A stretch of DNA of 64,000 bases, from assembly GCA_019748175.1 (NCBI GenBank), contig JAIEPX010000020.1, positions 5,392 to 69,391 of the forward strand. The letters are read 5' to 3'. Position 1 is the stretch's first letter; each line of letters starts with the position of its first letter. Under the pieces are notes generated by a model that worked only from the letters and a program-made list of their open reading frames with translations, was not told the origin of the DNA and made no database searches. Positions 550 through 25,371 of the stretch are shown piece by piece. This DNA comes from Gammaproteobacteria bacterium. Its GTDB lineage: Bacteria > Pseudomonadota > Gammaproteobacteria > JAIEPX01. The translations under genes and the position numbers were made by a program.

Positions 550-1005
550 GTTAAACATAAAAAATTAACCTTCAATTCTATAGCAAGATAAAAATATACT
601 CAGCAATTCAATATTGCTATTGATGTCAAATTTTTCTTTGATTTTCATAATGTGATATTCAACGCTACGATTTGAAAAGTTTAAAACCCTCGCGATTTCT
701 TTCGCTGACATAATTAACTTCTAATGTTATTTGGGTAATCTCCTAGGTTACAGTTTATTTGTAATATATTGCTTTCCTAAAATCAGCATAAGCTGAATTA
801 TGAATGAAGTGGTACGAGTCTTAAACAGAGTATATTAGGTTCAAAAAACCACCGTATAAAATACGCAAACGACGAACATAATTCACATGATTAAATTAAC
901 ATATTTATTATAATTATATATTTCATGCTGAGGATAAAGCCATGCGAGATAGCAAAACAATAGGTGAGATTCTTGGGGCGATAACATCAAGTTTGAACGA
1001 ATAAG

Positions 1006-1773
1006 TTAGTCAATCTCGTTTTCTTTAATCCAATATGAGCTTTGCCAATCTATATGGACTATCTTTTCTTTTATATTATGTATTTTACGATAATAATCTG
1101 TGGCCTTTTTTTCATCACAAATGTCTAATCTATAATCATCTAAAACCACATAACCACCTATAGACAATTTAGGATATAATTGTTCCAAAGTCGTAAGTGT
1201 TGACTCATAAAAATCGCAATCTATTCTCAATATAGATAATGATTTTATTTTATCTGTTGGTAGAGTATCTTTAAACCACCCTTTCAAGAAAATAACGTTA
1301 TCAAACAGCAAATTGTATCGCGTGAAATTATCTCTAACGGTCTCTTCTGATATAAAAAGCCTATTCACATCCTCAACATTAGAATTATAATACATTTCTT
1401 TATCTAACTCTGTGTCAGGTATTGGTAATCCACAATAAGAATCTGCTAAAAACAATTTTTTATCTAATCTTCCTAATATGTATAGTATAGCCTGCATATA
1501 TATGGCACATCCACCTCTCCATACGCCACATTCAATTATATCACCATCGACCTTATTGTTTATGGTATTGAAAATAAACTGAAACATACTATCAAGGCGA
1601 GTAATGGTACACATTGAAAGCGCCCTGCCATGCCAGACATGTTGAAACACACGATCTGAAAAAGCGTCTTCCTTATTTTGCGTATCAACAACACCCTTGT
1701 CACAGCGTGTATTGAGTAAATCTAATACGCTGTTCTTGATGAGTTCCAGATAATCTAACTGAAATTGATTCAC
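1006..1773 (-). CDS. TylF/MycF/NovP-family SAM-dependent O-methyltransferase (macrocin-O-methyltransferase-like)
   Basis: Motif DIIECGVWRGGCAIYM matches the family hallmark (E-x-GV-x-x-GG). C-terminal LSILRIDCDFYEST matches the family (L-R-x-D-G-D-x-YEST-like). Size 255 aa. It is the 3'-most gene of a co-directional, tightly spaced operon. Confidence 0.6.
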   Translation of the reverse strand: MNQFQLDYLELIKNSVLDLLNTRCDKGVVDTQNKEDAFSDRVFQHVWHGRALSMCTITRLDSMFQFIFNTINNKVDGDIIECGVWRGGCAIYMQAILYILGRLDKKLFLADSYCGLPIPDTELDKEMYYNSNVEDVNRLFISEETVRDNFTRYNLLFDNVIFLKGWFKDTLPTDKIKSLSILRIDCDFYESTLTTLEQLYPKLSIGGYVVLDDYRLDICDEKKATDYYRKIHNIKEKIVHIDWQSSYWIKENEID

Positions 1774-1815
1774 TATAATGTATCCATTTTTTATAAGCGT
1801 ACAAAAAAGATTCGA

Positions 1816-2493
1816 TTAGCAAGGTTTCTCCAGCAGATCTATATAATCTAATACTTGAATAATATCATATAAAGCTTCGTAATAACCTAGATCATTAAAA
1901 GCGTTAAGGGTTGTATTCCCCGTCAGAATAGGCAGAAAGTCGACCTTAGAGTATGTTGCTACTTTAGCATCAACAATGTTATCGCCCACATATAATATAT
2001 TCTCTGCAGGTACATTCATATGCTGTATAATCTTGTTCATACCTTCGGTGTTTGGCTTATGCTTTAACACATCTTCTCCCCCTATAATACAATCGACAAA
2101 ATGTAAGAGATCATTATCTTCTAAAACTTGACTAATTGTTTCTCTGAGCTTGGTTGATAAAATAGCCACTTTGATTTGGCTATTCTTTAATGATGAAAAC
2201 AATACCCCAACATTGTTATAGACTACCGTACTTTTCCGCATTACTCTACTTGACATAGTTAAAAAATGTTTGACAAATTCAGGTATTTTATCATCTGTTT
2301 CACTACTATGTAACGTATTAAATGTACTAGCAAGATCAAGCCCTATAGTGTTTATAATATCTTCTTTGGGCGGAATCTTTAAGTTTAAAAATCTTGAAGC
2401 ATATTGAATAGACTTAACTATCCCCTTAGAGGAATCAGCTAAGGTAAAATCAAAGTCAAAAATTACTAACTCTTTGGTCATCTTACTAAGCAT
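1816..2493 (-). CDS. HAD-superfamily hydrolase (phosphatase, PGP-like)
   Basis: Motif I VIFDFDFTLADS (DxDxT). Motif III lysine region GGEDVLKHKPN. Motif IV YVGDNIVDAK. Confidence 0.7.
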   Translation of the reverse strand: MLSKMTKELVIFDFDFTLADSSKGIVKSIQYASRFLNLKIPPKEDIINTIGLDLASTFNTLHSSETDDKIPEFVKHFLTMSSRVMRKSTVVYNNVGVLFSSLKNSQIKVAILSTKLRETISQVLEDNDLLHFVDCIIGGEDVLKHKPNTEGMNKIIQHMNVPAENILYVGDNIVDAKVATYSKVDFLPILTGNTTLNAFNDLGYYEALYDIIQVLDYIDLLEKPC

Positions 2494-2505
2494 GCCATAT
2501 AACCC

Positions 2506-3363
2506 TTAGTATGTAACGTCACCGATGATACTAGTTCTATAGAGCAGCCTTTGAAGCTCGATAGGCGTATGAGTACCTCGATGTATAAGTGATGCATTAT
2601 CCCATATTAGTAAATCTCCTTCTAGCCACTTATGAGTATATATGAATTTCTCCTGCACTGAGTGGTCATTCAGTTGAGTTAATAAACTACGGTTTTCGTG
2701 TATATCATCCCCAATTATCTCCTTTATCGTCAGTTGGTTTAGGTAAAGGCTCTTCTTATTATTATGCGGATGTATTCTCACAATGGGGTGAACAACCTCT
2801 GGAAAAAATTCATCTAGATTGTCCTCGTATTTATTATTCCTTAATTCTTTAAATTGATGGCCGAAAGAGTGTATTGCTTTCAAACCAGCGATTTTATTCT
2901 TAACACTATCTGATAAACTGTTATAGGCAGCTCTCATATCTGAAAACATTGTGTCTCCCCCAATAGCGGGTCTTATTTTAGAATGGAGTATCGTATATTT
3001 TGATGGTCGACTTAAGAATGAATTGTCAGTATGCCAAATTTGGGCTGAACTTTTATAATCATAATTTTTTAATCCAATATTTGAAATCATATGCACATGC
3101 TCATTTTCTTGGCTGCGATCCTTCTTATCCCAAGTTATTTCCAGGTCACCAAACATTGAAGATACTTTTATCAAATCGGATTGAGATAAACACTGATTTC
3201 GAAATACTAAAATGTGATAATCATCCAGCAATTTTGTAAACATGCTTGCAAATCGTTCAGCTTCACTATTTAATAAATTACATCCTTTAATCTCTATGCA
3301 GTACCCAGATCCTAACATACTGCTTCTATATGGAAGCTTCGGTTTTGTACATTTAACATCCAT
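2506..3363 (-). CDS. TauD/TfdA-family Fe(II)/2-oxoglutarate-dependent dioxygenase
   Basis: HxD iron triad motif WHTDNSF. Distal His plus Arg in LIHRGTH near the C-terminus. Size about 285 aa. Start may be the internal Met (MLGSGY...), which would remove the 11-nt overlap with the upstream kinase gene. Confidence 0.6.
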   Translation of the reverse strand: MDVKCTKPKLPYRSSMLGSGYCIEIKGCNLLNSEAERFASMFTKLLDDYHILVFRNQCLSQSDLIKVSSMFGDLEITWDKKDRSQENEHVHMISNIGLKNYDYKSSAQIWHTDNSFLSRPSKYTILHSKIRPAIGGDTMFSDMRAAYNSLSDSVKNKIAGLKAIHSFGHQFKELRNNKYEDNLDEFFPEVVHPIVRIHPHNNKKSLYLNQLTIKEIIGDDIHENRSLLTQLNDHSVQEKFIYTHKWLEGDLLIWDNASLIHRGTHTPIELQRLLYRTSIIGDVTY

Positions 3364-3982
3364 AGATCAAATTCGTGTGAATAGCGACTACCTTGCTTTT
3401 AAGCTGAGTTACATTATCGTGAAAATGAGAATCCGATACTACAAAGTCTGCAATGTCTTTATAAGGCGACACATAATTCTCAAACATAGGCTTAATTTTG
3501 GACTCGTATCGACTTAACCCATATTCGACTACGTCAATTCCTCTGCATTTTAAATCTCGATTTAACCTGCGGGATAAGCATATATCTAACGGGGTATCAA
3601 TATATACTTTAATTGTAAACATCTTCGCCAACAAGGAATTCGTCATCAGTAACAAACCATCAACAAGTATGATTGGATTCGGCATAATTTTTTCAGCTTC
3701 TTCCACTCTCAACAATGTTGAAAAATCAAACTTTGGGCTTAAGATTGGAGTTTTTTCACAATACAGTTGTTTTAATTGCGTTATAAGTAATGTATGGTCT
3801 AGAGAGCTTGGGTGATCATAATCAATGTTTCTTCTTTCCTCATATGAAAGCTGATTAGAATTATGATAATAATTATCTTCTTTCAAACATGAACACCCAA
3901 CTTCATTTAATTGTGTTGCCAGAAGGTCCAGGAAAGTTGATTTTCCTGAACCACTGGCGCCGTAAATGGCTACCATAACCAT
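3353..3982 (-). CDS. Uridine/cytidine kinase family (Udk/PRK-type P-loop nucleoside kinase)
   Basis: Walker A IYGASGSGKST. Family motifs EDNYYH...YDHPSSLDHTLL and IKVYIDTPLDICLSRRLNRDLKCRG, resembling Udk D-x-YY...DHPDAFD..LL and DTPLDIRLARRLKRD. Confidence 0.75.
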   Translation of the reverse strand: MVMVAIYGASGSGKSTFLDLLATQLNEVGCSCLKEDNYYHNSNQLSYEERRNIDYDHPSSLDHTLLITQLKQLYCEKTPILSPKFDFSTLLRVEEAEKIMPNPIILVDGLLLMTNSLLAKMFTIKVYIDTPLDICLSRRLNRDLKCRGIDVVEYGLSRYESKIKPMFENYVSPYKDIADFVVSDSHFHDNVTQLKSKVVAIHTNLIYGC

Positions 3983-4004
3983 ACTAATAGCTCACAATTT
4001 ACAT

Positions 4005-4754
4005 CTAATTATTCAGTCCAAAACCTGATTGATGATCATGTTGATGCTGATCCTGAGGAGTTTTGCTGCTATGACTAGAAGCAAGTATTGGAGAATCATG
4101 ACGTATGGAAGCTGTTGAAGTACTGCTTTGTGCAAGTGATCTAATCATCTTAACCTTTTCAATTAATCGCGGATCAGAATTAACCAATAACTGCATAGGT
4201 TCATCACGTTCAAACTGTGTAGTTAAGTACCGAATCATACCAGGAAAGACAAAATCAGTTGCAGCTATTGGTAAAGGTGCCTTGATTTCCATCGATGTTA
4301 TTTTCTCTACCGCTTCTTTCAAATCTTCGACAACCACAACACTAGGATTTTTAACAAATGGATGAGTCCACCCCACAAGATCTTGCCCCAAACATTCTAC
4401 CTTCTTTGGTTTATAATGAGTTCCAGTAGGAGTCCAGCTTACAACTGGAACAGCTTTAAAGTTTGCGAAAGCCATTTCGTATCCAACACCTATCCCTCTT
4501 CTTTCCCTGCAGTCCGCTAATACGCAATCACTCAGATAAACTTGCAGCATATCACGACCAAACAAAGATAACTCATCTGATAAATCATCTGTTCGATGTG
4601 CGGGATTTAGAAAGCCTACTGTAACATCTTTTTCAGCCATCAGAGTCCTTAGTTGTTCTAAATGAAAATCGGTCCAATAAGAATTCTCTTCAGCAGAATT
4701 GCTTTTTTTAATACTACCTGACATATACAGAAATATCGATCTAGCTTTTTTCAT
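4005..4754 (-). CDS. Nucleoside 2-deoxyribosyltransferase-like fold protein (NDT, DNPH1/Rcl, MilB/BlsM-type N-glycosidase or transferase superfamily)
   Basis: N-terminal IFLYMSGSI resembles the YLAGP motif. Central CVLADCRERRGIGVGYEMAFANFKAVPVV resembles the NDT core (vvAnl..D.GT.fEiGyA.a.gKPVv). C-terminal about 90 aa is low-complexity (S/T/Q/H-rich). Confidence 0.5.
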   Translation of the reverse strand: MKKARSIFLYMSGSIKKSNSAEENSYWTDFHLEQLRTLMAEKDVTVGFLNPAHRTDDLSDELSLFGRDMLQVYLSDCVLADCRERRGIGVGYEMAFANFKAVPVVSWTPTGTHYKPKKVECLGQDLVGWTHPFVKNPSVVVVEDLKEAVEKITSMEIKAPLPIAATDFVFPGMIRYLTTQFERDEPMQLLVNSDPRLIEKVKMIRSLAQSSTSTASIRHDSPILASSHSSKTPQDQHQHDHQSGFGLNN

Positions 4755-4830
4755 ATATTACTCCTTTCAAAATAAATAATAATATGCTCGATTATATTCA
4801 TAATCGGGCTTGCCAAAAACAATTAAACTA

Positions 4831-5499
4831 TCAATCTACCCACCAATCAACCACAGGATCTTGTAGCTTTGCTGGTGTGATATACCGAGGCGCCTCATTA
4901 GGAGATTCAAAGATGTCTTCTCTAAAGTAAGTTCGCCCCGTCTCATTAAAGTGCTCTCTAATACTGTTACGAAGCTCAGGATTACTACCACGAGAAATAC
5001 CATGTTTGGCAAATGAAAACTCGGGTTGAAACAATATATATACTTTATTCGAGTCTGAAGCATTTCTTGAGTGATTTTCATCATAACAAGGAGCAAATGC
5101 TTTCACGAATAACCGCATATTTAAAAACGTGAATTGCCACTTCTTATCATTTACCTTTTTAGCGAGTGAATTGCCTTTTGAAGGGTCATTTTGGGATAAT
5201 ATAGATAATGCTTCCTTTGTGGTCTCAGCTAAGCTTTCTACTGAAGTACCGTATTCTGGTGGCATTGCGATGATGTATCCATCTAAATCTTTCTGATCCG
5301 CACTCTGAATAAACATTTCTAATGAAGGAATAATACTTAAGAGATTTTCCGTCAAACTTAAATGATTATTCCATTCAGGGCTGCCCCAGATTTTAGCTTT
5401 GGGAGCAAATGGACATCCTTGCATTTGAACTTTCTTAAATTCCTCCAAACAACCCGCATCCCCCGGGTCAAAACTAGCCTTATCACAAACAGCGTTCAT
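4831..5499 (-). CDS. Hypothetical protein, first gene of the minus-strand operon
   Basis: ORF 4831..5553. The internal Met (MNAVCDKASF...) is preferred as start. No recognisable motif. Co-directional with and 76 nt upstream of the NDT-like gene. Confidence 0.3.
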   Translation of the reverse strand: MNAVCDKASFDPGDAGCLEEFKKVQMQGCPFAPKAKIWGSPEWNNHLSLTENLLSIIPSLEMFIQSADQKDLDGYIIAMPPEYGTSVESLAETTKEALSILSQNDPSKGNSLAKKVNDKKWQFTFLNMRLFVKAFAPCYDENHSRNASDSNKVYILFQPEFSFAKHGISRGSNPELRNSIREHFNETGRTYFREDIFESPNEAPRYITPAKLQDPVVDWWVD

Positions 5500-5808
5500 A
5501 GAAACCTCCTTGGTTAGAAACTTGTATTTTACACAAAAATGCTTTTTCGTCAACTCGACTTTAATTTCGACATTGACACAAAGGGTACGTACACGAAATT
5601 AAAGCGCGATCTCGTTTTGTTCTCGCATGATAACTTGTGAATTCCAATCTGTAGATCTACTCATTGAATTAATATTGAAAATATAACTCTGTTTCTATGT
5701 TAATTTTTTTTCTTTACAGATCTTCAAGCATATGTTATTAATCAAAATACTAATTTACTCATTATTTTTCACAATAGTTAGAAATTTGATTGTGAGAGGA
5801 GAGTTAAG

Positions 5809-6633
5809 ATGAGCAAAAGTTCAGGGGTGAATTTAAGCAAGAATATAGCTATAAATCACAGCAGTATTGTTTCTGAAATATGTGAATCATTAAGTAAAGA
5901 TTTACAATTAACCTATTTCAATTATGTAAAACTCTATCCTGATGGTAAAAGAGCTCTTTTAACCAATCGACCCGAATGGCTGGAAGTGTTTTATGCGAAT
6001 GAGTTGTACAAACTTCCAGAAGTAAAAACAATAGAAAATCATCAGATTGGAGACTATCAACTTTGGGCAACTTATAGTGATCAATCTTCATTCGAAATTG
6101 CTAGTCAAGAACATAATATAGCAAACGGGATAACAATATCGATATCATTGCCTAATAATATCACTGAGCTATATTACTTTGGAACAACTCGTAATAATTA
6201 CCATATGCAAAATGTGTATCTTAACAACATTGATTCACTAGAGAGCTTTATTCGATATTTTAAAAACACAGGTGAAAAAATCATTGCACTCGCTGAATCT
6301 AATCTAATTGTTACTGAGCCAGAACCAAAGATCGAATTATTAGATATGGCATATATCAATGAAAAAATTGAAGAATTCATGAGCGAGTGCAAGGTGTCAA
6401 GTTATACTATTAATGCTAATGGTGTGAAGACGAAAATTACAAAAAATGAAGCGCAGTTCATTCGAGAGCTCGCCACAAACTTGTCTATCAGTGAAATTGC
6501 GCTACGGCTAAACAAATCAAAAAGAACAGCTGATGACTACGTGGAAAGGATAAAAGATAAATTTATGAGTGATAATATATCTCAACTAAGAAAAATAATC
6601 GCTCAAAATAAACTTGGAGATAAGTTGTATTAA
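5809..6633 (+). CDS. LuxR-family transcriptional regulator (C-terminal HTH) with uncharacterised N-terminal domain, no receiver domain
   Basis: C-terminal EAQFIRELATNLSISEIALRLNKSKRTADDYVERIKDKF is a LuxR/GerE-type HTH. Good RBS GAGAGGAGAG 7 nt upstream of ATG. 255-bp AT-rich promoter region upstream. Confidence 0.65.
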   Translation: MSKSSGVNLSKNIAINHSSIVSEICESLSKDLQLTYFNYVKLYPDGKRALLTNRPEWLEVFYANELYKLPEVKTIENHQIGDYQLWATYSDQSSFEIASQEHNIANGITISISLPNNITELYYFGTTRNNYHMQNVYLNNIDSLESFIRYFKNTGEKIIALAESNLIVTEPEPKIELLDMAYINEKIEEFMSECKVSSYTINANGVKTKITKNEAQFIRELATNLSISEIALRLNKSKRTADDYVERIKDKFMSDNISQLRKIIAQNKLGDKLY

Positions 6634-6645
6634 ATTATACAGCTA

Positions 6646-9600
6646 ATGAGTGATAAAATGCGACTAGCTGATTTAAAATTAGGATGCAATAATAATTTGC
6701 TTAATCATATATTAAAGTACTCAAAAATTTCACCTGACAAGACTGCGTTAACTTTCATTGATGACAACAACGAAATTTCTTATACATATGATGAACTATA
6801 TAAAAATATATGTGAACTCTCAGATAAATTGAAATTATATGGTCTTAGTGATTCTACGGCTATTCTTGCATTTAAACCATCAATTGAGTTTGTCATAGCC
6901 TATCTAGCATGTATCAAAGAAAAAATATTGGTTGGAGTTTGCCCAGCAATATCTACAAATAATATGATAAACGTAAACAAATATATTGATTTTTTAACTC
7001 AGGAGCTAAAGACAAGCATCATTATCGTTAATAATGATTCAAAAGACTACATCAACTTGTCGAATGTTAATTTGATAATTTTAAATGATCTTATCTCAAA
7101 TTACAATCGGAAAACTCTCGGCGCTGTAGATATAAATGTGACGGAAGACCAGAATATTCATATATTATACACGTCTGGATCAACCTCAAAACCAAAAGGT
7201 GTTATAGCTACAGAAAGCCAATTGCTATACAACATTAATTACACATCAAAGGTTTGGGGTTTCGATGAGTTAAGTACCAGCCTAACTATCGGTAATCATT
7301 ATCATGCTGCAACTATTGTAGCAGGTATTTTGTTACCATTAGTAAAAGGTGGGAGATGCATTATAATGCCAACTCAGTCCGTTTTAGATGACTCATCACA
7401 ATGGTTGCGGGTAATTTCTAAATACGGAGTAACACATGCTGGCGGCCCCCCTTATTTATATAAACTGTGCATCGATAATATAAAGCTTTTATCAACGGAT
7501 TCAACTCTGAAAAAATGGAAGGTTGCGTTTATCGGTAGTGAGGTTGTTTCTTACTCATTAATAAAGAAATTTTCAACTTTATACAGTAAATATGGTTTTG
7601 ATTACAATAATTTCTGTGTTAGTTATGGGATGACAGAAAGTAATGGATTAATATGTAGCACACCTCGCGACACACCACCTACTACGCAAAAAATTCGTAT
7701 AAATAGAGGGTTAAAGACATTCATGGGTTGCGGAAAAGCATCCCATGGAACACACGTATTAATAGTGAATAATTCAAAGGTGCTTAAGGATAAACAGATT
7801 GGAAAGATATATGTCAATAGCAGTTCGATATTAACTGACTACCACAATAGGTCTGATTCACAATTTTTGTATTATCAATCAAAGCGTTATTTCGACACAC
7901 AAGATTTGGGTTTTAAGAAGAATGGTGTGTTATATGTTATAGGTAGATCTGACAGGACTATAATAGTTAGCGGTCAAAATTATAATTTAGATGTCCTAGA
8001 GCAGGACATGCAATCAAATATTTGTCAAAAATACCATGTTATTAGCACTATTGCGAATTACAATGATTCTAAATTAGTTTTGATTTTAGTTTTCGATAAA
8101 GACAATGATATTGATATGATAGAATTATTTAATCAAGTCAGGATGTATTTGTTTACGTTTTATAGTGGTATAATAATCTCCGATATATACGTTATCCTCC
8201 ATGATGATTTACCCTACTCACAAAATAGAAAACTTCCAAAATTGAAAATTCTTTATATGATTAATGAGAAACATATTATTCCACTAAGACACTTCAGTAT
8301 ATCCACTCCAAGCTGTATAATTGAAAAAATCCTATTATTGTCAAATAAGGTAAGAAAAAATGAAACGCTCTCAGATAGCGAAGTTTTGTCTCTAAAAGAA
8401 TTATTAACATTGGACTCTATTCATTACGCCAATCTTATATATCAGTTAGAAAACATTTTTAATTTACGGTTAAAACTTACAGATATACTGAGTGCCAAAA
8501 CCATTGGTGACTTAATAATAAGTTTGGGTTTTGTTCCCTCAAAAAAACAAAGTGTTACTCTTCAAGCAAAGCCTTGTATAGTTAAGCCGCAATCGAATTA
8601 TGATACTAAAATGCCAAGATTAGATGAGAAAGGATCAACGTGTAACATACTATTAACTGGTGCTTTAGGTTTTATTGGTTCCCACCTGCTAAAGTTTTTG
8701 AGTCAGAACAAAGATAATAATATTTACTGCTTAATTAGAGAAAATAAAAGAACCACGTTTTTTTGCTATTTTTGTAATTCCACTAAAATATGTAATTGCA
8801 AAAATGAGCTAGAAAAAAACAATGTTACATTAATTGCCGGGGATACTGAACTAAAGAATTTTGGAATGAGTATTAAAAAATGGAGAAATCTATGTAATAA
8901 AATTGATGTTATATTTCATATGTCAGAATATGTTAATCACTTTGAAAAATTTGACTCTCTGTGGGCTATATATTCAGCGTCGTTAGATAATGTGCTGCAA
9001 TTTGCTTTTGCTTATAAACCTAAGAAATTAAACTACTTGTCCAGCTTGCCTGTTAATAATATATTAGAGCAAGTCACCACCTTTAATGAATTATTTGAAA
9101 GCCAACAGCTTAGGTGTAATTATTCAGGATACCTGCTTTGCAAGGCTGCTACAGAGTTAATTTTAAGAGACATATCTTCTAAGCACATTGCAATATCAAT
9201 ATTCCGTTTAGGCCAAGTTACATCTACTCTAGAAAAATTTGTGATTAATCAAAAAGATATATTCCATCAGTTGCTGCGATTGATTGCGATGACTGAAAAT
9301 TTGCCATTATCTAGAGCATTATATGTCAACGCTATTCCAATTGATGTATTAGTGGAGAGTATAATTCTACAGAACTTACAACCTATTTATCACAATGAAA
9401 ATTATTTTATATATAATATTTTCAACCCAGTAGAAAAAAATCTCAATCAATTATTCGATATAAATAATAACCCTACTAAAAAAGAAATTTCTTTTTTACA
9501 ATGGATTTCTGAAGCGCAGAAACATTTAAAGCACTTTAATGAGCCTATACGTAGAGTTATTTCTGAGCTATTATCAAATGATAGTAACTCACCGATAAAT

Positions 9601-9729
9601 TTTACAAAATATTTCATGACATATGCTGAATACCAAAATTCGTTATCGGTTATTGCGATGGGTGATGAGAAAGATGCTCTTAACATTTATGATATGTTGC
9701 TAACTAACATTAAGGATTATTTGCTATGA
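6646..9729 (+). CDS. Stand-alone adenylation (FAAL/AMP-binding), carrier protein, thioester reductase enzyme (NRPS-like or carboxylic-acid-reductase-like), 1027 aa
   Basis: A3 motif YTSGSTSKPKGV. A5 YGMTESNG. A7/A8 region YFDTQDLGF...IGRSDRTIIVSGQNY. Carrier-like LTLDSIHYANLIYQLENIF. Rossmann motif of TR domain ILLTGALGFIGSHLL. YxxxK in YLLCK. An unusual Cys-rich insertion FCYFCNSTKICNCKN sits inside the reductase domain. Confidence 0.8.
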   Translation: MSDKMRLADLKLGCNNNLLNHILKYSKISPDKTALTFIDDNNEISYTYDELYKNICELSDKLKLYGLSDSTAILAFKPSIEFVIAYLACIKEKILVGVCPAISTNNMINVNKYIDFLTQELKTSIIIVNNDSKDYINLSNVNLIILNDLISNYNRKTLGAVDINVTEDQNIHILYTSGSTSKPKGVIATESQLLYNINYTSKVWGFDELSTSLTIGNHYHAATIVAGILLPLVKGGRCIIMPTQSVLDDSSQWLRVISKYGVTHAGGPPYLYKLCIDNIKLLSTDSTLKKWKVAFIGSEVVSYSLIKKFSTLYSKYGFDYNNFCVSYGMTESNGLICSTPRDTPPTTQKIRINRGLKTFMGCGKASHGTHVLIVNNSKVLKDKQIGKIYVNSSSILTDYHNRSDSQFLYYQSKRYFDTQDLGFKKNGVLYVIGRSDRTIIVSGQNYNLDVLEQDMQSNICQKYHVISTIANYNDSKLVLILVFDKDNDIDMIELFNQVRMYLFTFYSGIIISDIYVILHDDLPYSQNRKLPKLKILYMINEKHIIPLRHFSISTPSCIIEKILLLSNKVRKNETLSDSEVLSLKELLTLDSIHYANLIYQLENIFNLRLKLTDILSAKTIGDLIISLGFVPSKKQSVTLQAKPCIVKPQSNYDTKMPRLDEKGSTCNILLTGALGFIGSHLLKFLSQNKDNNIYCLIRENKRTTFFCYFCNSTKICNCKNELEKNNVTLIAGDTELKNFGMSIKKWRNLCNKIDVIFHMSEYVNHFEKFDSLWAIYSASLDNVLQFAFAYKPKKLNYLSSLPVNNILEQVTTFNELFESQQLRCNYSGYLLCKAATELILRDISSKHIAISIFRLGQVTSTLEKFVINQKDIFHQLLRLIAMTENLPLSRALYVNAIPIDVLVESIILQNLQPIYHNENYFIYNIFNPVEKNLNQLFDINNNPTKKEISFLQWISEAQKHLKHFNEPIRRVISELLSNDSNSPINFTKYFMTYAEYQNSLSVIAMGDEKDALNIYDMLLTNIKDYLL

Positions 9730-10463
9730 ACACACTGAAGGAAAAGTGCAAAATACTAAAAGATAAGTTCGATATAGATTATTTTTGCTTAACAATGATA
9801 GATGATGATAATAGATCAATCATATCAAATATAGACGAGTTTGATGAGGTATATATTAGCGAAAAAATATTCAATTATGCTCCAGTATTTCAGCTGGAAA
9901 ATTCACAGGATGATATCTATTACATTTGGGACCTAAAATTTGATTATGAGGCTTTTAACATTCTTTCTAAGATTTATGGTGTGAAATGTGGAATAGGAAT
10001 ACATTCCAAAATTTTGAGCTCTAATCATGTGTATTACTTTTTCTCAAATAGCGATGTACCCATTAAGTATTTATATTTATTACATATGAATGGTGTATTT
10101 TATAGATTTGTCAATTATATTTTAGAAGAAATTGATGATAATAACCTTCGATTTGGCAAGCTAAAAATATCGCCCGATCATAATATAGAGGATGGTGTTT
10201 CGATAGCCGTTGATAGCAGCGCACTAAATAACGGTCTTGGCGAAAAGTTTTCTTTTCAAACATCTACTGGGAGCATCATATTAACTCAAAGCGAGCTTGA
10301 TATATTACGTCAGTATATTAAGGGATTATCAGCAAAGGAGATTTCAAGAGTTGTAAATAAATCTTATAGAACTGTTGAGGGCTATATTTCTCGATCTATG
10401 AGAAAATTGATGTGTGATTCAAAAAATCAGTTAATAATTAACTATTCAAGATATTTACTATGA
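9726..10463 (+). CDS. LuxR-family transcriptional regulator, paralogue of 5809..6633 in architecture
   Basis: C-terminal LTQSELDILRQYIKGLSAKEISRVVNKSYRTVEGYISRSMRKL is a LuxR-type HTH. Start overlaps the stop of the upstream gene by 4 nt (ATGA), suggesting translational coupling to the A-T-R enzyme. Confidence 0.65.
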   Translation: MNTLKEKCKILKDKFDIDYFCLTMIDDDNRSIISNIDEFDEVYISEKIFNYAPVFQLENSQDDIYYIWDLKFDYEAFNILSKIYGVKCGIGIHSKILSSNHVYYFFSNSDVPIKYLYLLHMNGVFYRFVNYILEEIDDNNLRFGKLKISPDHNIEDGVSIAVDSSALNNGLGEKFSFQTSTGSIILTQSELDILRQYIKGLSAKEISRVVNKSYRTVEGYISRSMRKLMCDSKNQLIINYSRYLL

Positions 10464-10540: not shown

Positions 10541-11383
10541 ATGTGTCAGCTGATTGGAATTGGATTGAGGCACCCACATATCCGGCAAGTGCTGGAGGAA
10601 TTACCGTCTGTGGGATGGTGGGAAATTCACAGTGAGAATTTTTTCCAGGCAGGCGGCCCTTCTTTAGAAAATTTACTTTCCATTCGAGAGCATTACCGAT
10701 TAAGTCTACATGGGGTAGGGCTTTCATTAGGTTCGTCATCTGGGATTGATGAGCAGCATTTGAGTCGATTGAAAAATCTCATTCAGCAGTTAAACCCATT
10801 TCTTGTTTCAGAACATCTTTCGTGGAGTAGAGTAGGAAATCTTTTTTTACCTGATTTGCTTCCGATTCCTTATACAAAAGAGAGCTTGGAAGTTATTGCT
10901 CGTAATATAGATCAAGTTCAAAGTTATTTGGGTCGAGAAATATTAATAGAGAATCCGTCTTCATATCTTGAATTTGCATCATCAGAAATGGAGGAGGAGA
11001 GTTTTTTGATCACGTTGTGCCAGAAAACGGGTGCAAAAATTTTGTTGGATGTGAATAATATTTTTGTCTCTTGCTCAAATCATGGATGGGATATGAATAA
11101 GTATATCGATTCCGTGCCCCCTGATTTAGTGAGAGAAGTTCATTTGGCGGGCCATTCTATTAAATCCATAACACCAGATCAGAAGATACATATAGACACT
11201 CACGATACAACAGTTGATGGAGCAGTTTGGGCGCTATATGGTTATGCAATATCAAAATTTGGCGCTAAGCCAACATTATTAGAGTGGGATGCACAGATTC
11301 CATCGCTTGACACATTAATAAAAGAATCGAGGAAAGCATTGGATTATCTGCCACAGGAGGTAATGGCAATTGAAAACACTTGA
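10541..11383 (+). CDS. DUF692 family protein (MbnB/TglH/HvfB-like TIM-barrel multinuclear-iron peptide-modifying enzyme family)
   Basis: Characteristic N-terminus GIGLRHPHIRQVLEELPSVGWWEIHSENFF. Length 280 aa. Immediately followed by an overlapping DUF2063 partner. Confidence 0.8.
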   Translation: MCQLIGIGLRHPHIRQVLEELPSVGWWEIHSENFFQAGGPSLENLLSIREHYRLSLHGVGLSLGSSSGIDEQHLSRLKNLIQQLNPFLVSEHLSWSRVGNLFLPDLLPIPYTKESLEVIARNIDQVQSYLGREILIENPSSYLEFASSEMEEESFLITLCQKTGAKILLDVNNIFVSCSNHGWDMNKYIDSVPPDLVREVHLAGHSIKSITPDQKIHIDTHDTTVDGAVWALYGYAISKFGAKPTLLEWDAQIPSLDTLIKESRKALDYLPQEVMAIENT

Positions 11384-12134
11384 GCAGATACAAAAAGATT
11401 TTTGCGATGCGATTCTGCACCAGAAATCCAGTGATTATCATTTTATTTCTTCATCGAATCCTATGGATCGTGTATCTATTTATAAAAACACGATTTTTGA
11501 TGCTCTTCGAAAAGCGCTGGCGGTAACCTTCCCAGGTGTTTGGATCTTATTAGGAGAAGAATGCGCCGATAATCTTGCAAGAGCATTTTGCAGTATCGAT
11601 GCTAATTTGCCTTTTTCAGGTTGTTTAGATGATTGGGGTGCTCAATTTCCTGATTTTATCTATCAACAAGAATCGCTTAAAAATTTATCGTATCTAAAAG
11701 ACTTTGCAGAATATGAATGGCTTAAACATTTATCATACAGCGCAGCATCTGTTATGATGCTCGAGTCAGATGCATTAGTTAGTATTGCGGAAGAAAATGT
11801 TGAAGCACTTGCATTCACTTTGCACCCATCTGTTTTTACAATGATGAGCCCATTTGCTCTCGATGAAATAGTCGACATAATAGAAAATCCTGACAACGCC
11901 ACTGTCAATTCTATTTCTAAGAAAACATACGCCCTAGTCGCCCGCCCGTATAATACCGTATTGACGTTTTGGGAGGGTGCTGATTTGTGGTTATTTATTG
12001 ATACTCTATTGAAAGGAAAAAGTTTGGGAGAATCCTTTCAAGCAGTAAAAAATGAGTTCCAGGATTTTGACTTAACTAATGCCGTACATTTTTTGCTGCA
12101 GCAGAAACTTTTAATCTCTATTGAATATAATTAA
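11370..12134 (+). CDS. DUF2063 family protein (partner subunit of DUF692 enzymes; putative DNA-binding-like fold)
   Basis: N-terminal Q..F..A(I)L...............RVSIYKNTIFDALRKALAVTFPGVW..LGEE.F..LARAF matches the DUF2063 signature. Overlaps the DUF692 gene by 14 nt. Confidence 0.7.
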   Translation: MKTLEQIQKDFCDAILHQKSSDYHFISSSNPMDRVSIYKNTIFDALRKALAVTFPGVWILLGEECADNLARAFCSIDANLPFSGCLDDWGAQFPDFIYQQESLKNLSYLKDFAEYEWLKHLSYSAASVMMLESDALVSIAEENVEALAFTLHPSVFTMMSPFALDEIVDIIENPDNATVNSISKKTYALVARPYNTVLTFWEGADLWLFIDTLLKGKSLGESFQAVKNEFQDFDLTNAVHFLLQQKLLISIEYN

Positions 12135-12650: not shown

Positions 12651-13997
12651 TTATATTGAATTTAGTTTTGAGTCAAATGGTGTTAAGGATACAAATTCTT
12701 CGAATTTTCCGTTGGGTTGTCGAGGGATGTCGCTGTGAAATGTGAGTTCGATATCGAAAGGATAACCGAGATTTTTTTTGATTAGCTTTGAGTAACGATT
12801 TTTTTGGTCTGGTGTTAATGGGTTGTCCACAACAAGTTTGCATTCTATTTTTTTCAGATCATGCTGAATCATTTGGAATTTCTTTACAGCTTTGGTGATA
12901 TGACGATATTCTTCTCTTTCGCCAAGGTATGGAAATCGACTTTCGCCGTTAGGAAAAATAATGCGATTGCGTTTACGACCGCATATTTTTTTTATTGTAG
13001 GTAGAGCATCACGTCCACAAGGACAGGCGGTGTCCAGTTGGGCGTAGTCTCCAATGTCGTAACGAAGCAATGGTGTGGCGAAATTATGCAAACTAGTTAA
13101 TATTATGCGACCTTCTTCGCCTAATGCACTTGGTTTATCGTCATCATTTAAAATTTCTATGATGACATTTTCTGATTGTACATGATAATTATGGTATTCT
13201 GGACATTGAATTGCAATTATTCCAAATTCTTCAGAACTGTAAATATCCGTGAATTTAACAGGGTAGTTTTTTGACATTGAGATAAGTTCTGGATCTACGG
13301 TTTCTCCTAAACTTCGAATTTCTAGAAGATTTTGCAGTAGAATTTTTTGATCGATAATTTCTTGCAATACAATTTTAAGTTGCGATGGATAACTTAAAAG
13401 ATAATGAGGATTGATCATTTGAAGCCATTTGAGCTGGCTTTGTGTAGATGAAGCAATATTGAGAAAAAAGCCGGCACCAGTATTGATGATCCCTTCTGTT
13501 ACACTTCCCCAGTGTTTGTTGGTTTCGCCCAGTGGTGGTAGCGCTTCATTGCGTTTTGCCCAACGAATGGCGGCCAAAGTTTTGCTAAAGTCGCGTTGAT
13601 GCCACAAATGTTCTCGCATGGAGAGAGCTTGCCAGTAACAGGTGGTGTCAAAAGTCCCAATTAATCGTACAGCAACGCCCGTTGAACCCGATGTTACGAT
13701 CGGATAAGTGAAATCGTCAGCTTGCAGGGCAGTACTTTTTAAGGTGGTGTCTTGACCCGATTGCAGTTGTTGACGTGATAAAATCGGGAGCGACGACAAA
13801 AATTCTTGAGTGAGTGGTTGTGAAGGTTGGTAATTAGAATGTTCAAGATATTCTCGGTAAAAAGGCACAGTATTAAATGTGTGGGTAATAATTTGTTCTA
13901 GTCGAGTGAGCTGCCGAGTCCGCATGTAATCTGGTGAATACCACTGTGATTTCTCGAGAGATTCGATAATGTTTTTTACAACAGTTGTTTTATCCAT
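12651..13997 (-). CDS. Phenylacetate-CoA ligase (PaaK)/coenzyme F390 synthetase-like adenylate-forming enzyme
   Basis: Motif VTSGSTGVAVRL (TSGSTG). Length 448 aa and overall PaaK-like layout. Confidence 0.7.
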   Translation of the reverse strand: MDKTTVVKNIIESLEKSQWYSPDYMRTRQLTRLEQIITHTFNTVPFYREYLEHSNYQPSQPLTQEFLSSLPILSRQQLQSGQDTTLKSTALQADDFTYPIVTSGSTGVAVRLIGTFDTTCYWQALSMREHLWHQRDFSKTLAAIRWAKRNEALPPLGETNKHWGSVTEGIINTGAGFFLNIASSTQSQLKWLQMINPHYLLSYPSQLKIVLQEIIDQKILLQNLLEIRSLGETVDPELISMSKNYPVKFTDIYSSEEFGIIAIQCPEYHNYHVQSENVIIEILNDDDKPSALGEEGRIILTSLHNFATPLLRYDIGDYAQLDTACPCGRDALPTIKKICGRKRNRIIFPNGESRFPYLGEREEYRHITKAVKKFQMIQHDLKKIECKLVVDNPLTPDQKNRYSKLIKKNLGYPFDIELTFHSDIPRQPNGKFEEFVSLTPFDSKLNSI

Positions 13998-14010
13998 AGG
14001 TTAATTTATC

Positions 14011-15210
14011 TTACTGTGAATTTTGTATCATTAATCGAGTGATATATCTCAAGCTTGTAATGTTCCCCCATGCAGTTTGATTTGGAACTAATTTTGCTTC
14101 AGGTAAAATTTTAATAAATTGCTGTAGGGCAATCTCAGTTTCAAGTCTTCCAAGTACAGAGCCTAAACAAGTGTGTATCCCTTTTCCAAAGGCTAAATTT
14201 AATTGTTCTCTTTTTATATTGAGGCGATGAGGATCGTCAAAAATTTCAGGGTCTCGATTGGCAGCATTTAAAAGAGGCACAACGAGGGTATTTTCAGGTA
14301 TTTCAGTTTCATTAATGGTCACTGGGGCTGTGGTCCAACGAGATAACTTATTGAAAGGGGTTTCATAGCGTAAACATTCTTCTACAGCTTGAGTTATGAG
14401 GTTGGGGTGATTTTTTAATAATTCGATTTGATCAGGATGACGTAAAAGACTATAGATTGATAAACTGATAGCCAGTCGGGTGGTTTCATGTGCCGAAAAT
14501 ACTATAAAGGTTGTTGCGTCTGCTATTTGAGTATCATTTAGAGGCTCTTCCATTAAAGCATTATTTTCTATCACGTAGGATAAAAAGTTACTTTGAGGAT
14601 TATTTTTATAATCCGCTAGATAGTCGTGAAAAAATTGTCTTAAAGTAGGAAGTAATGTTTGTATGCTATAAACCTTATCAGATGAGCCGGTATCCAGATT
14701 TTGAGTAATGGTATCAGAATATAATTTAATAAATTGATTTTCGTGTGGCGGTAATCCACTAAGATCGCATACTACAGCCAAGCTGAGAGGCCCAGCGAAT
14801 TCAGATACAATATCAAATTGATCACGTTTTTTTAGTGACTGTAGTAAATGTTCAGATAAGGCTGAAATTGTATCAGCACGGGCACGAATAAATTTAGGAT
14901 TGATGGCTTTAGCGAAAAATTGGCGCATTTGGGTGTGTTTTGGCGGGTCTTGAAATATTAGCCAGTTCATCAAAAAGGCATCCATATCATTCTCACGTAA
15001 TTGCTCTTGAGTGAGTGTCTTGAAATGATGCGGTGGTCTTCGTGAGGTGTTTTTATTCGTTAATAAAGCAACCACGTCTTGGTATTTGGTTAGATAAATA
15101 ACACCGCTGTCATCTTGGTAAACAGGTTCTTTTTCTTGAATAAGTTGATAAGTGGGGTAAGGGTCGGCGATAAAATCAGGGTCATAAAAATCAAGTTTAA
15201 TTTTTTGCAT
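14011..15210 (-). CDS. Cytochrome P450
   Basis: Heme-thiolate loop FGKGIHTCLGSVLGRLE (FxxGxxxCxG). ExxR in ETPFNKLSRW region. I-helix-like FSAHETT. 399 aa. Confidence 0.85.
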   Translation of the reverse strand: MQKIKLDFYDPDFIADPYPTYQLIQEKEPVYQDDSGVIYLTKYQDVVALLTNKNTSRRPPHHFKTLTQEQLRENDMDAFLMNWLIFQDPPKHTQMRQFFAKAINPKFIRARADTISALSEHLLQSLKKRDQFDIVSEFAGPLSLAVVCDLSGLPPHENQFIKLYSDTITQNLDTGSSDKVYSIQTLLPTLRQFFHDYLADYKNNPQSNFLSYVIENNALMEEPLNDTQIADATTFIVFSAHETTRLAISLSIYSLLRHPDQIELLKNHPNLITQAVEECLRYETPFNKLSRWTTAPVTINETEIPENTLVVPLLNAANRDPEIFDDPHRLNIKREQLNLAFGKGIHTCLGSVLGRLETEIALQQFIKILPEAKLVPNQTAWGNITSLRYITRLMIQNSQ

Positions 15211-15888
15211 TTATTTTTTTCCTGGTGCGTCATTGGTGATATCATGAACGACGATAGCGGAATAGCTTAGGCTGTCTGAGTGCTCATAATAATTTTCAAT
15301 GATGTGACGTTGATCAGGAACATGAAAATGAATGCGACGATATTTTTCTAGTAGGGGATCTATGAGGCGTTTGCCAATGCGTATTTGAGCATAGTCTTGT
15401 GCAGATATAGCGCCGTTTTGTTTAATGTAGTTAGCGTAACCAGGTAAAATTGCACCCGCAATAATATAGTTAAGTTTTAATTTTTGTGCCAGCGCTAATA
15501 AATGAGGATATGGAGCTCCAAACAAATTATGTTGTTGGAAGGACTGTTCCACTACACCTGAAACAATATAGAGCGCGTTAGCATTTTGTGGTGGTTCCTG
15601 GTCGGCAAGAAAACCATTGTTGGTGATGTGATCCCAGCTACTGAAATTACTGAGGTTTTCGGAATTATAATGAACACAACATGTGCTGATAATATACGCC
15701 AATTGATTGTCAACGTAAGTTAAAAAAAATCCCTGCTCAAACTTTTCTATGCGTGATCGCATTTTTTCGATAGAGGCATGATGTTTGGGGTCTAGTGAAA
15801 AACTTTTTTCTACTTGCATGATTTCATTGAGATCTTCGAGTTTTGCCGTTCTTGTGTAAATATTATTTTTTGACATTGAATTACTCAA
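15211..15888 (-). CDS. GNAT-like N-acyltransferase (tentative)
   Basis: N-terminal AKLEDLNEIMQVEKSF is typical of GNAT proteins. No strong Q/RxxGxG/A motif identified. Its stop abuts the P450 start codon with 0 nt gap. Confidence 0.3.
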   Translation of the reverse strand: MSNSMSKNNIYTRTAKLEDLNEIMQVEKSFSLDPKHHASIEKMRSRIEKFEQGFFLTYVDNQLAYIISTCCVHYNSENLSNFSSWDHITNNGFLADQEPPQNANALYIVSGVVEQSFQQHNLFGAPYPHLLALAQKLKLNYIIAGAILPGYANYIKQNGAISAQDYAQIRIGKRLIDPLLEKYRRIHFHVPDQRHIIENYYEHSDSLSYSAIVVHDITNDAPGKK

Positions 15889-23319: not shown

Positions 23320-24612
23320 GTGGTTAAAGTCAAAGTTGAAAGTATAAATGTCGCTGATCTCCAGCAAAAAAGACCCGAAGAGTTAATGGAAATGGGCAGG
23401 CAATTGCAAATTGATAACCTTGCCGGAAAGAGCAAACAAGTTTTAATTTTTGAAATTTCAAAAAAATTAGCTCTTGAGCATCCTGAGCTAAAGACAGCGA
23501 TTCATGGGAATGGTGTACTTGAAATATTACCCGATGGATTCGGGTTTTTACGATCTCCCAAAATGTCTTATTTGCCGGGTCCTGATGATATTTATGTTTC
23601 ACCTAACCAAATTAGACGATTTAATTTAAGAACAGGTGATAGTGTTGTCGGTATTATTCGAGCGCCAAAAGAAGGCGAACGATATTTAGCCCTGATAGAA
23701 GTAGAAAAAATTAATTTTGACTCGCCTGAAGTTGCGAAAGATCGTGTGGCATTCGAAAATTTAACTCCAGTGCATCCTGATAGTCGAATTATTATGCAAC
23801 GCGGTAACGGTAGTAAAGAAGATGTTACTCCGCGCATCATTGATTTGGTGGCGCCTATTGGTAAAGGACAACGAGGTTTGATCGTTTCTCCACCAAAAGC
23901 GGGTAAAACAATGATGCTTCAAAATATAGCAGCATCAATTGCGAATAATTATCCTGAATGTTATTTGATTGTATTGTTGATTGATGAGCGCCCTGAAGAA
24001 GTAACTGAAATGGAGCGGTGCGTTAAAGGTGAAGTCGTTGCGAGTACTTTTGATGAGCCTGCAACACGTCATATTCAAGTTGCTGAAATGGTAATTGAAA
24101 AAGCGAAGCGCTTAGTCGAACACAAACTTGATGTTGTTATTTTATTGGACTCTATTACTCGTTTAGCACGTGCTTACAATACTGTTGTTCCTGCTTCAGG
24201 AAAAGTCTTAACGGGTGGTGTTGATGCCAATGCATTACAACGGCCGAAACGATTTTTTGGTGCTGCTCGTAATATTGAAGGTGGTGGAAGTTTAACAATT
24301 TTAGCGACCGCGTTGATTGATACGGGTTCAAAAATGGATGACGTTATTTACGAAGAATTTAAAAGTACGGGTAACAGTGAAATTCATTTGGATCGCGCTA
24401 TTGCCGAAGGACGAACTTTCCCGGCAATTAATATTCAACGTTCAGGTACTCGTCGTGAAGAATTGATTACAAATGCGGAAGAGCTGAATAGAATGTGGAT
24501 ATTACGAAGAATACTCCATAATATGGGTGAAAAGCCTTCTATTGATTTCTTGTTGGAAAAATTGGGTCATACCAAAACTAACGAAGAATTTTTTGATACG
24601 ATGAAGCGCTAG
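23320..24612 (+). CDS. rho: Transcription termination factor Rho
   Basis: Walker [17 protein letters not shown]-terminal CSD/RNA-binding region. 430 aa. GTG start as in ORF track; exact start uncertain. Confidence 0.9.
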
Positions 24613-25370: not shown

Positions 25371-25371
25371 G

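Follow-up and report, generated by a model that had tools for sequence, protein, structure and literature searches.

Do two LuxR-type regulators that enclose an enzyme gene sense the product of that very enzyme? This question is raised by three adjacent genes in a 64,000-nt stretch of a gammaproteobacterial contig (the window, by which we mean the whole stretch that was analysed), in which LuxR1, an enzyme with adenylation (A), thiolation (T) and thioester-reductase (R) domains, and LuxR2 follow one another:

5809-6633, + strand: LuxR1, 274 aa (open reading frame (ORF) call)
6646-9729, + strand: A-T-R enzyme, 1027 aa (ORF call)
9726-10463, + strand: LuxR2, 245 aa (ORF call)

The three ORFs, their ATGA overlap and the A-T-R architecture claimed in the original prediction are all real, with exact coordinates and with all genes on the + strand. 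We consider a make-and-sense circuit plausible for this trio, and we give somewhat less than an even chance to the proposal that the product of the enzyme is an endogenous ligand of LuxR1, LuxR2 or both, other than an acyl-homoserine lactone (AHL), which feeds back on their shared promoter.

LuxR1 is preceded by a strong AGGAG, read directly from the DNA, and is separated from the enzyme gene by 12 nt. The enzyme gene ends GAT TAT TTG CTA TGA, where the TG of its TGA stop codon is common to the ATG start codon of LuxR2, and an AAGGA is located 12 nt upstream of this ATG. LuxR1, the A-T-R enzyme and LuxR2 thus form a tightly packed unit in which LuxR2 is translationally coupled to the enzyme. 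At the ATGA junction there is also a tandem repeat, TAACATTAAGGATTATTTGCTAAC, with a 24-nt unit present 1.9 times at 9681-9726 (+ strand), which covers the last codons of the enzyme gene and the ribosome-binding region of LuxR2. The trio is recorded at NCBI under MBX9587303.1, MBX9587304.1 and MBX9587305.1 as "MAG: Gammaproteobacteria bacterium" (MAG, metagenome-assembled genome); outside this record its three proteins were each found only in one Logan read-set assembly, the enzyme in its 1027-aa form.

Two divergent receptors of the quorum-sensing type

LuxR1 and LuxR2 can be aligned over their full length with 24% identity (E 1e-15). They are old paralogues and did not arise by a recent duplication: LuxR1 is closer to proteins from other metagenomes (33-38% identity) than to LuxR2. 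LuxR1 comprises a ligand-binding domain at about aa 15-165 and a GerE-type helix-turn-helix (HTH) at aa 210-260, which is in register with the family alignment and whose modelled C-terminal helices match those of quorum-sensing (QS) receptors, and LuxR2 has a canonical GerE HTH recognised by Pfam (41.9 bits, E 8e-11, cut-off 23.5). A search of 5.8 billion proteins retrieved 11 relatives of LuxR1 at 29-38% identity, and an exhaustive HMMER search with LuxR2 gave 248 matches, mostly of 260-290 aa and aligned end to end.

The N-terminal domains had been proposed to be of a non-receiver type, and this is borne out by both the family profile and the fold search with LuxR1, which give an autoinducer-binding fold. 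The best solved structures for a profile of 50 family proteins are the QS receptors RhlR, TraR, SdiA, CviR and QscR; the profile matches the N-terminal domain separately (TraR 29-135) and also aligns the ligand domains of SdiA and RhlR. Ten of the 50 family members reach the Pfam model Autoind_bind, which has no direct match to LuxR1 or LuxR2. An AlphaFold (AF2) model of LuxR1, built on the family alignment, has a pLDDT (predicted local distance difference test score) of 92.8, and the top 50 PDB structures retrieved with it by Foldseek are without exception QS LuxR receptors or ligand-binding domains of these, including full-length SdiA, RhlR, QscR, TraR and CviR, and also LasR. The model superimposes on the ligand-binding domains of LasR and YenR with template-modelling (TM) scores of 0.6-0.66. 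A degenerate receiver domain, named beforehand as the refuting outcome for the LuxR N-termini, is ruled out by this fold search. LuxR1 and LuxR2 belong to one family of QS-type LuxR receptors, in which the N-terminal domain of LuxR1 is modelled as the autoinducer-binding (alpha-beta-alpha) type and that of LuxR2 is probably of the same type, by homology to LuxR1 and the family.

The wider family is also found on a plasmid of Legionella adelaidensis and in a Megaira endosymbiont, in different gene contexts. In one of the metagenomic loci discussed below (L001, 10001-11718), two paralogous LuxR-family genes (290 and 275 aa) lie adjacent to each other in convergent orientation and adjoin a NUDIX-HAD fusion, a flavoprotein and a methyltransferase, with no acyl-activating enzyme nearby; because of this pair, paired receptors can be said to recur in the family even where such an enzyme is lacking.

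What kind of ligand might these receptors bind? The pocket of AHL receptors is marked by the hexad WYDPWG, which corresponds to W57, Y61, D70, P71, W85 and G113 of TraR (PMC4414361). When these positions were transferred through the family hidden Markov model (HMM), the hexad read WFPEWG in LuxR1 and FYAPWG in LuxR2. Most of the hydrophobic Trp and Gly positions are retained in the pair, and an AHL ligand is unlikely because Asp70, which anchors the AHL, is lost in both proteins. Asp70 is kept in only 14 of the 50 family members and the canonical hexad in none of them, which marks the family as a diversified, non-AHL branch of the QS-LuxR receptors. No LuxI-type synthase (Autoind_synth) was found among the 37 ORFs scanned in the 64-kb window, a scan that covered the long ORFs up to about 22 kb.

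The receptors might alternatively eavesdrop on AHLs or related acyl signals of other bacteria in the manner of SdiA and QscR, with the enzyme as one of their target genes. Both SdiA and QscR are among the best structural matches, and W57, W85 and G113 are retained in LuxR1, but Y61 is replaced by Phe in LuxR1 and the Pfam autoinducer-binding model matches neither protein directly; we regard eavesdropping as quite improbable.

An orphan enzyme with an A domain resembling fatty-acyl-AMP ligases

What could the enzyme between the two receptors make? It is divided into three domains, the first of which resembles fatty-acyl-AMP ligases (FAALs):

6646-8280, + strand: adenylation domain, FAAL-like (aa 1-545; Pfam AMP-binding, FAAL matches in the PDB, neighbour-joining (NJ) tree)
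8338-8565, + strand: carrier (thiolation) domain (Ser591, nt 8416-8418, in LTLDSI; weak PP-binding match)
8650-9729, + strand: thioester-reductase domain of the short-chain dehydrogenase/reductase (SDR) type (Pfam NAD_binding_4, motifs)

Among the 5.8 billion proteins the enzyme is a sequence orphan, with at most 30% identity to any other protein, and this over the A domain only. Pfam AMP-binding covers residues 29-399 (E 2e-39), the best specific NCBIfam matches of the A domain are FAAL models, all below their cut-offs (PRK09192, 154.9 against 600), and its best PDB matches are the FAAL domains 7r7f, 3kxw and 3pbk. The motifs A3 (YTSGSTSKPKG), A5 (YGMTES) and A8 (GRSDRT) are present, and the catalytic A10 Lys, on which the integrity of the core depended in the original prediction, is retained (NRK) in the alignment with FAALs. 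The A4 region, HYHAATIVAG, lacks the Asp for an alpha-amino group, and with 89.5 bits the domain stays far below the cut-off of 317 for TIGR01733, the model of amino-acid adenylation. The generic A domain like those of nonribosomal peptide synthetases (NRPS) that had been assumed thus gives way, as judged from these comparisons, to one that is FAAL-like rather than of the amino-acid type. The segment between A5 and A6 in which FAALs have their specific insertion is about 20 residues shorter here (30 residues from YGMTE to GCGK, against about 50 in the aligned FAALs); since the carrier is fused in cis, this is no argument against carrier loading.

Ser591 (LTLDS591), the predicted phosphopantetheine site, is aligned with the serine of the DS motif in FAAL proteins fused to an acyl carrier protein (ACP), and its loading would require a phosphopantetheinyl transferase (PPTase) acting in trans. 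The reductase domain with a YxxxK motif had been predicted correctly: Pfam NAD_binding_4 matches residues 670-906 well over its cut-off (E 9e-33, 114 bits), and TGALGFIG, Ser799/800, Tyr829 and Lys833 (YLLCK), with the Ser/Tyr/Lys set intact, are in register with ten other R domains. The thioester-reductase domain model TIGR01746 stays below its cut-off of 213 with 148 bits; among solved structures the R domain is closest to MxaA (4u7w, E 2e-18), and 8v1x is a further PDB match. The equivalog model for carboxylic acid reductases (CARs), NF041592, is matched by the R domain only (76 bits, cut-off 1300). A "Cys-rich insertion" that had been noted in this domain is not an insertion, since FCYFCNSTKICNCKN (aa 706-720, nt 8761-8805) stands in place of the variable helix after the CLxR strand and has the same length as this helix in the ten other R domains; its richness in Cys is a compositional oddity of an AT-rich gene. 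From its domains, the enzyme should release either an aldehyde or an alcohol, in agreement with what had been proposed. The ORF of 1027 codons is intact in DNA of 31% GC, which argues for selection on the enzyme.

Related loci link the receptor family to acyl-adenylating enzymes

Is the proximity of receptor and enzyme more than coincidence? Gene contexts could be recovered for eight relatives of LuxR1, and in five of them (L004, L010, L012, L014 and the P0123 contig, which form two lineages by LuxR identity) the receptor gene lies in a conserved cluster. In these clusters the proteins most similar to LuxR1 (33-38% identity) share an operon with a FAAL-like enzyme, and the genes encode 2OG-Fe_Oxy_2, GATase, (MFS), FAAL-like (about 587 aa), HAD, LuxR, TauD and UPRTase-like proteins, together with a NUDIX-methyltransferase, a short GerE-only protein and an HD nucleotidase. 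Stop and start codons overlap between the LuxR gene and the enzyme genes next to it, and a second GerE-type regulator is present beside the receptor in every related cluster. In a sixth context (P0130), the LuxR gene follows genes for an AMP-binding enzyme, a flavodoxin-like protein and a class I/II aminotransferase; the remaining two (L001, L003) have no acyl-activating neighbour.

The A domain of the window enzyme groups with the FAAL-like proteins of the clusters in an NJ tree (bootstrap 100/100) and has the derived motifs H[AS]A (not HDMG), YGMTE, GCGKAS.GT and GRS in common with them. The likeness extends to an HAD phosphatase (the window protein is 28-30% identical to "HADa" of L004 and L014), a TauD-family dioxygenase, a salvage-type UMP-forming enzyme, a methyltransferase and the second GerE-type protein. 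There are also clear differences: the FAAL-like enzyme of the clusters stands alone (about 587 aa), and because the clusters are without T and R domains, it is the adenylating enzyme, and not a reductase, that is conserved as partner of the receptor. Window and clusters use different families of UMP-forming enzyme, with a uridine kinase in the window and a UPRTase-like protein in the clusters, and different families of methyltransferase, and the TauD proteins and methyltransferases are of other subfamilies. GATase, 2OG-Fe_Oxy_2, NUDIX, HD and MFS genes are present only in the related clusters, whereas a YqcI/YcgG-family protein and a protein with the fold of nucleoside 2'-deoxyribosyltransferases (NDT) are encoded only in the window. 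The common theme of receptor, FAAL-like enzyme, phosphatase, 2-oxoglutarate (2OG) dioxygenase, pyrimidine-salvage-type enzyme, methyltransferase and second GerE protein holds for the families, but only in part for orthologues. Counted by lineage, the LuxR1 subfamily shares its operon with an AMP-binding or FAAL-like enzyme in four of the six other lineages whose context could be used. That the subfamily is repeatedly linked with acyl-adenylating enzymes strengthens, by comparison, the case for a functional connection of regulator and enzyme.

In mycobacteria and other bacteria, enzymes of the FAAL-T-R and CAR-like kinds work in lipid metabolism, and FAAL-T-R architectures were also seen elsewhere in our data (for example P0104 and P0014). 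The window enzyme might be a housekeeping or envelope-lipid enzyme that provides fatty aldehyde or alcohol for a wax, ether lipid or glycolipid, with the LuxR genes as unrelated neighbours. We consider this very unlikely: the ATGA coupling to LuxR2 and the spacing of only 12 nt from LuxR1 speak against chance neighbours, the LuxR-FAAL linkage is recurrent, a low-GC island is atypical for core lipid genes, and no close orthologue of the enzyme exists among the proteins searched.

A divergent operon and the case for a biosynthetic cluster

Is the trio a self-contained unit? It is the + strand half of a divergent low-GC cluster of about 10 kb (about 565-10463), the other half of which consists of six genes and a regulator remnant:

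565-711, - strand: GerE/LuxR-type HTH remnant, 48 aa, helices 2-4 only (tblastn)
1006-1773, - strand: TylF-family O-methyltransferase, last gene of the operon (Pfam TylF, E 1.4e-66)
1816-2493, - strand: HAD-family phosphatase (Pfam HAD_2, E 3e-36)
2506-3363, - strand: TauD/TfdA-family Fe(II)/2-oxoglutarate dioxygenase (Pfam TauD, E 2e-52)
3353-3982, - strand: uridine (cytidine) kinase (NCBIfam NF004018, 184.4 bits, cut-off 180)
4005-4754, - strand: protein with NDT / nucleotide N-glycosidase fold, without a Pfam match (AF2 and Foldseek)
4831-5553, - strand: YqcI/YcgG-family protein, first gene of the operon (Pfam YqcI_YcgG, E 1.5e-11, 44.9 bits, cut-off 27)

The GC content is 30-32% in the trio, 33-38% in the minus-strand genes and about 40% in the remainder of the window, and the low-GC block resembles an acquired island. 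The 3' end of the uridine kinase gene overlaps the start of the TauD gene by 11 nt. The best PDB relatives of the TauD-family protein are TfdA- and TauD-type enzymes; a UMP dioxygenase of the LipL type and an isonitrile synthase of the ScoE type were both considered but are not supported, as its PDB and NCBIfam matches are only generic TfdA/TauD entries. Members of the YqcI/YcgG family are heme-dependent guanidine N-hydroxylases (PMC12866846).

The protein encoded at 4005-4754 has no match in Pfam and none by sequence in the PDB, and its 37 homologues, all hypothetical and from MAGs including Chlamydiia and Alphaproteobacteria, have no conserved gene contexts. Its AF2 model (pLDDT 89.7) has NDT, PDT, DNPH1 and the CMP N-glycosidases BcmB and MilB as top Foldseek matches, with E-values of only about 1e-4. 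With BcmB, MilB and DNPH1 it has the predicted fold and the conserved Glu of the GxGxE motif (Glu93, invariant) in common; in contrast to them it shows no similarity at the sequence level, and no hydroxymethylase is encoded. Its position beside genes for a nucleoside kinase, a methyltransferase and a phosphatase is reminiscent of pathways to modified pyrimidines such as bacimethrin.

The GerE remnant is 48-52% identical (tblastn) to the GerE proteins of 88-136 aa in L004, L014 and L012, and the frames upstream of it are rich in stop codons. It is probably a decayed copy of the small GerE protein of the related clusters and looks like a third regulator that has become a pseudogene where the cluster ends.

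With a six-gene tailoring operon facing the trio across 255 bp, the earlier view of a circuit "rather than a classical biosynthetic cluster" is unsupported; the low-GC block has the appearance of a small biosynthetic cluster that contains its own regulators. The locus might then be an ordinary cluster for a specialised metabolite without any cell-cell signalling, in which nine genes make, for example, a lipid-tailed or a pyrimidine- or guanidine-derived antimetabolite, and LuxR1 and LuxR2 are cluster-situated regulators that answer a cue other than the product, for instance a metabolite of a host or an amoeba, an AHL-like molecule of foreign origin or a precursor of the pathway. This agrees with the six tailoring enzymes opposite the trio, with the MFS exporter and the many enzymes of the related clusters, which exceed the needs of a simple signal synthase, and with the high variability of the hexad across the family; in addition, there are well-documented LuxR solos that respond to exogenous or host compounds (PMC10134790). 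However, a receptor that is embedded in an enzyme operon with overlapping codons, and this in several lineages, fits autoregulation by the product better than an external cue, and roles as signal and as bioactive compound are compatible, as photopyrones and dialkylresorcinols have both (PMC10134790). We take a metabolite cluster without signalling as the main alternative to the circuit, though a rather unlikely one.

The divergent promoter region

Where might the receptors act? Two features were considered in the window:

5554-5808, unstranded: divergent intergenic (promoter) region of 255 bp between the two operons (read directly)
5645-5666, unstranded: candidate operator CAATCTGTAGATCTACTCATTG, a 22-bp imperfect palindrome with 9 of 11 pairs (palindrome search)

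The core of this palindrome resembles the tra/lux-box core, TG.AGATCT.CA. Promoter and terminator scans were uninformative in the AT-rich DNA of this region, and no Rfam families were found within positions 1-16 kb of the window. The related clusters differ in their candidate operator, which is an inverted repeat occurring exactly once, in a promoter region, in each of four clusters (4/4):

ACCGTA-N14-15-TACGG: L004 10218-10243; L010 4768-4794; L012 3430-3456; L014 8797-8822

It precedes either the 2OG-oxygenase operon or the short GerE gene and is a candidate operator for the regulators of the related clusters; it is absent from the window and from L001 and L003.

A proposed make-and-sense circuit

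How could these parts work together? In the circuit that we propose, the A domain would adenylate a fatty acid or another carboxylic acid without an amino group, which would be loaded onto phosphopantetheinyl-Ser591, with the PPTase supplied in trans. The R domain would then use NAD(P)H to release the acid as an aldehyde, or as an alcohol upon a second reduction, and this lipid-like product, either as such or after products of the divergent operon have been joined to it or have modified it, would serve as an endogenous non-AHL ligand for LuxR1, LuxR2 or both. The ligand-bound receptors would act on the shared 255-bp divergent promoter region. Since the receptors are co-transcribed with the enzyme, positive feedback would be expected.

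By analogy, such a circuit would follow the logic of "class C" LuxR solos, whose synthase is an adjacent enzyme other than LuxI, and would here be part of a small biosynthetic cluster. Precedents are PluR/PpyS and PauR/DarABC of Photorhabdus, and many solos are predicted to sense products of uncharacterised synthases that flank them (PMC10134790). Like these two systems, the window combines QS-type LuxR proteins that carry a substituted WYDPWG hexad (PMC10134790, PMC4414361) with an adjacent non-LuxI enzyme, and no LuxI was found among its ORFs scanned; in Photorhabdus, the enzyme makes the cognate, possibly bioactive molecule (PMC10134790). PluR (TYDQCS) and PauR (TYDQYI) keep Y61 and D70, whereas the window receptors have lost D70; the PpyS and DarABC synthases are of the ketosynthase type and not FAAL-like A-T-R enzymes, and the window encodes two receptors, of which LuxR2 is translationally coupled to the enzyme.

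With CARs (Nocardia Car and the mycobacterial A-T-R enzymes of the FadD9 type) the window enzyme has in common the A-T-R architecture and, as expected from it, activation by ATP, a phosphopantetheine thioester and NADPH-dependent aldehyde release; in contrast to them, it is shorter, at most 30% identical to any known protein and far below the cut-off of NF041592. In TamA (A-ACP) and TamH of tambjamine biosynthesis, a fatty acid is likewise adenylated, loaded onto a carrier and reductively released as an aldehyde (PMC9594044). TamH is, however, a reductase on a separate protein, the reductase MxaA ends an assembly line of polyketide synthase (PKS) and NRPS modules, and these pigment and polyketide pathways are without receptor genes. 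That A-T-R enzymes can make precursors of autoinducers is exemplified by PvfC (PvfC/MgoA, Pseudomonas pvf), a stand-alone A-T-R enzyme whose aldehyde is a precursor of autoinducer-like signals (PMC10512218). PvfC activates leucine, whereas the A domain of the window is FAAL-like and its A4 region lacks the Asp. We know of no adjacent LuxR protein that reads out pvf signalling.

A number of observations weigh against the circuit. Every step beyond the domain assignment is inferred. The cluster is a singleton, seen in one MAG and one read-set assembly, and the LuxR-A-T-R-LuxR arrangement has no second example in the GTDB species genomes or in the metagenome scan: the genomes, scanned with the enzyme and with the LuxR1 subfamily alignment, gave no matches, and the metagenome scan gave only three contigs, each of at most 2.3 kb and without useful context. 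Several motifs of the enzyme are degenerate. The motifs of the A domain, which had been described as complete, are present for A3, A5, A8 and the A10 Lys, but A7 is altered to TQD from TGD. The carrier serine that had been claimed is correctly placed, but the domain itself stays below the Pfam threshold, with no match in the whole-protein scan and 18.4 bits to PP-binding for the excised linker (aa 587-624, E 0.0026, cut-off 20.8). In the R domain, the HxGAxVN and NVxGT motifs have drifted, the GerE HTH of LuxR1 is sub-threshold in Pfam (16.5 bits against 23.5), and no PPTase was seen in the window. The comparison with the related clusters is also affected: T and R domains are absent from them, the window TauD cannot be taken as an orthologue of theirs, with no BLAST similarity even at E<1, HMM scores for the A domain do not discriminate (237 bits with the cluster model, 276 bits with a generic FAAL model), and the grouping of the A domain with the cluster FAALs could be due to long-branch attraction. 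Finally, the palindrome CAATCTGTAGATCTACTCATTG is of marginal significance, as 2-9% of regional Markov simulations yield one and 21 such palindromes occur in the window, and it is absent from the related loci and hence not conserved.

Could the whole block be a decaying, horizontally acquired island, in which the ORFs are intact, function is eroded and the arrangement has no current role? The low GC content, the GerE pseudogene remnant at 565-711, the degenerate A7, R-domain NAD motifs and LuxR1 HTH, and the singleton status of the cluster would all be in accordance with decay. Yet there are nine consecutive intact ORFs, one of them of 1027 codons, in stop-prone AT-rich DNA, the catalytic Lys, Ser, Tyr and Lys are retained, and the LuxR1 model is very confident with a well-formed fold; we hold decay to be highly improbable.

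A broader version of the make-and-sense circuit would see the window and the related loci as members of an undescribed family of signalling cassettes of Legionellales-like or other host-associated bacteria, in which Asp70-less LuxR proteins are translationally coupled to FAAL-like enzymes and to enzymes tailoring pyrimidine nucleotides and guanidines, and a new class of autoinducer is made and sensed; the variant in the window would have gained the T-R fusion and the second receptor. The ligand could then be, for example, a fatty aldehyde- or alkyl-derived, possibly nucleobase-linked molecule. This extension we consider unlikely. In the full-text literature that was searched, neither a pair of QS-type LuxR genes enclosing a FAAL-like A-T-R enzyme nor the LuxR1/LuxR2 family in Legionella-like bacteria is described.

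LuxR solos exceed LuxI/LuxR pairs in number, ligands are known for only a handful of them, and the solved ligands, such as photopyrones and dialkylresorcinols, were found via the neighbouring synthase. With three plus six genes and a physical coupling of receptor and enzyme, the locus is a compact and testable candidate for de-orphaning a LuxR solo; the receptor pocket has departed from AHL chemistry, and the related clusters show that the coupling recurs. If the product is the ligand, the locus would provide a new class of autoinducer and, with the FAAL-like A-T-R enzyme, a new type of synthase for LuxR signalling, in a group with relatives in Legionella that is not known for LuxR-type quorum sensing. 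If it is not, a small orphan biosynthetic cluster would still be at hand, with a YqcI/YcgG N-hydroxylase, an NDT-fold protein without a Pfam family and an orphan reductase.

Neighbouring genes

Which genes of the window lie around the island? A BufB-type MNIO bufferin maturase (NCBIfam NF050167, 363 bits, cut-off 310) and its DUF2063/HvfC-like partner are encoded at 10541-12134 (+ strand), beginning 78 nt downstream of LuxR2 in the same direction and without an intervening terminator. No ORF for a DUF2282-type precursor is adjacent to this pair, and the local GC content is 37-40%; the pair is probably outside the island, yet may receive read-through from it. At 12651-15888 (- strand), a 448-aa protein with a faint AMP-binding match (E 0.007), a cytochrome P450 (399 aa) and a 225-aa protein without a family match are encoded, which may constitute a second small tailoring or biosynthetic unit beside the island. 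Further downstream, an Apyc1-like metallo-beta-lactamase adjoins a cyclic-nucleotide-binding protein (24609-25845, - strand), and a gene at 38357-39097 (+ strand) encodes a protein with a DOT1-like (eukaryote-type histone) methyltransferase domain, which hints at a host-associated, Legionella-like lifestyle.

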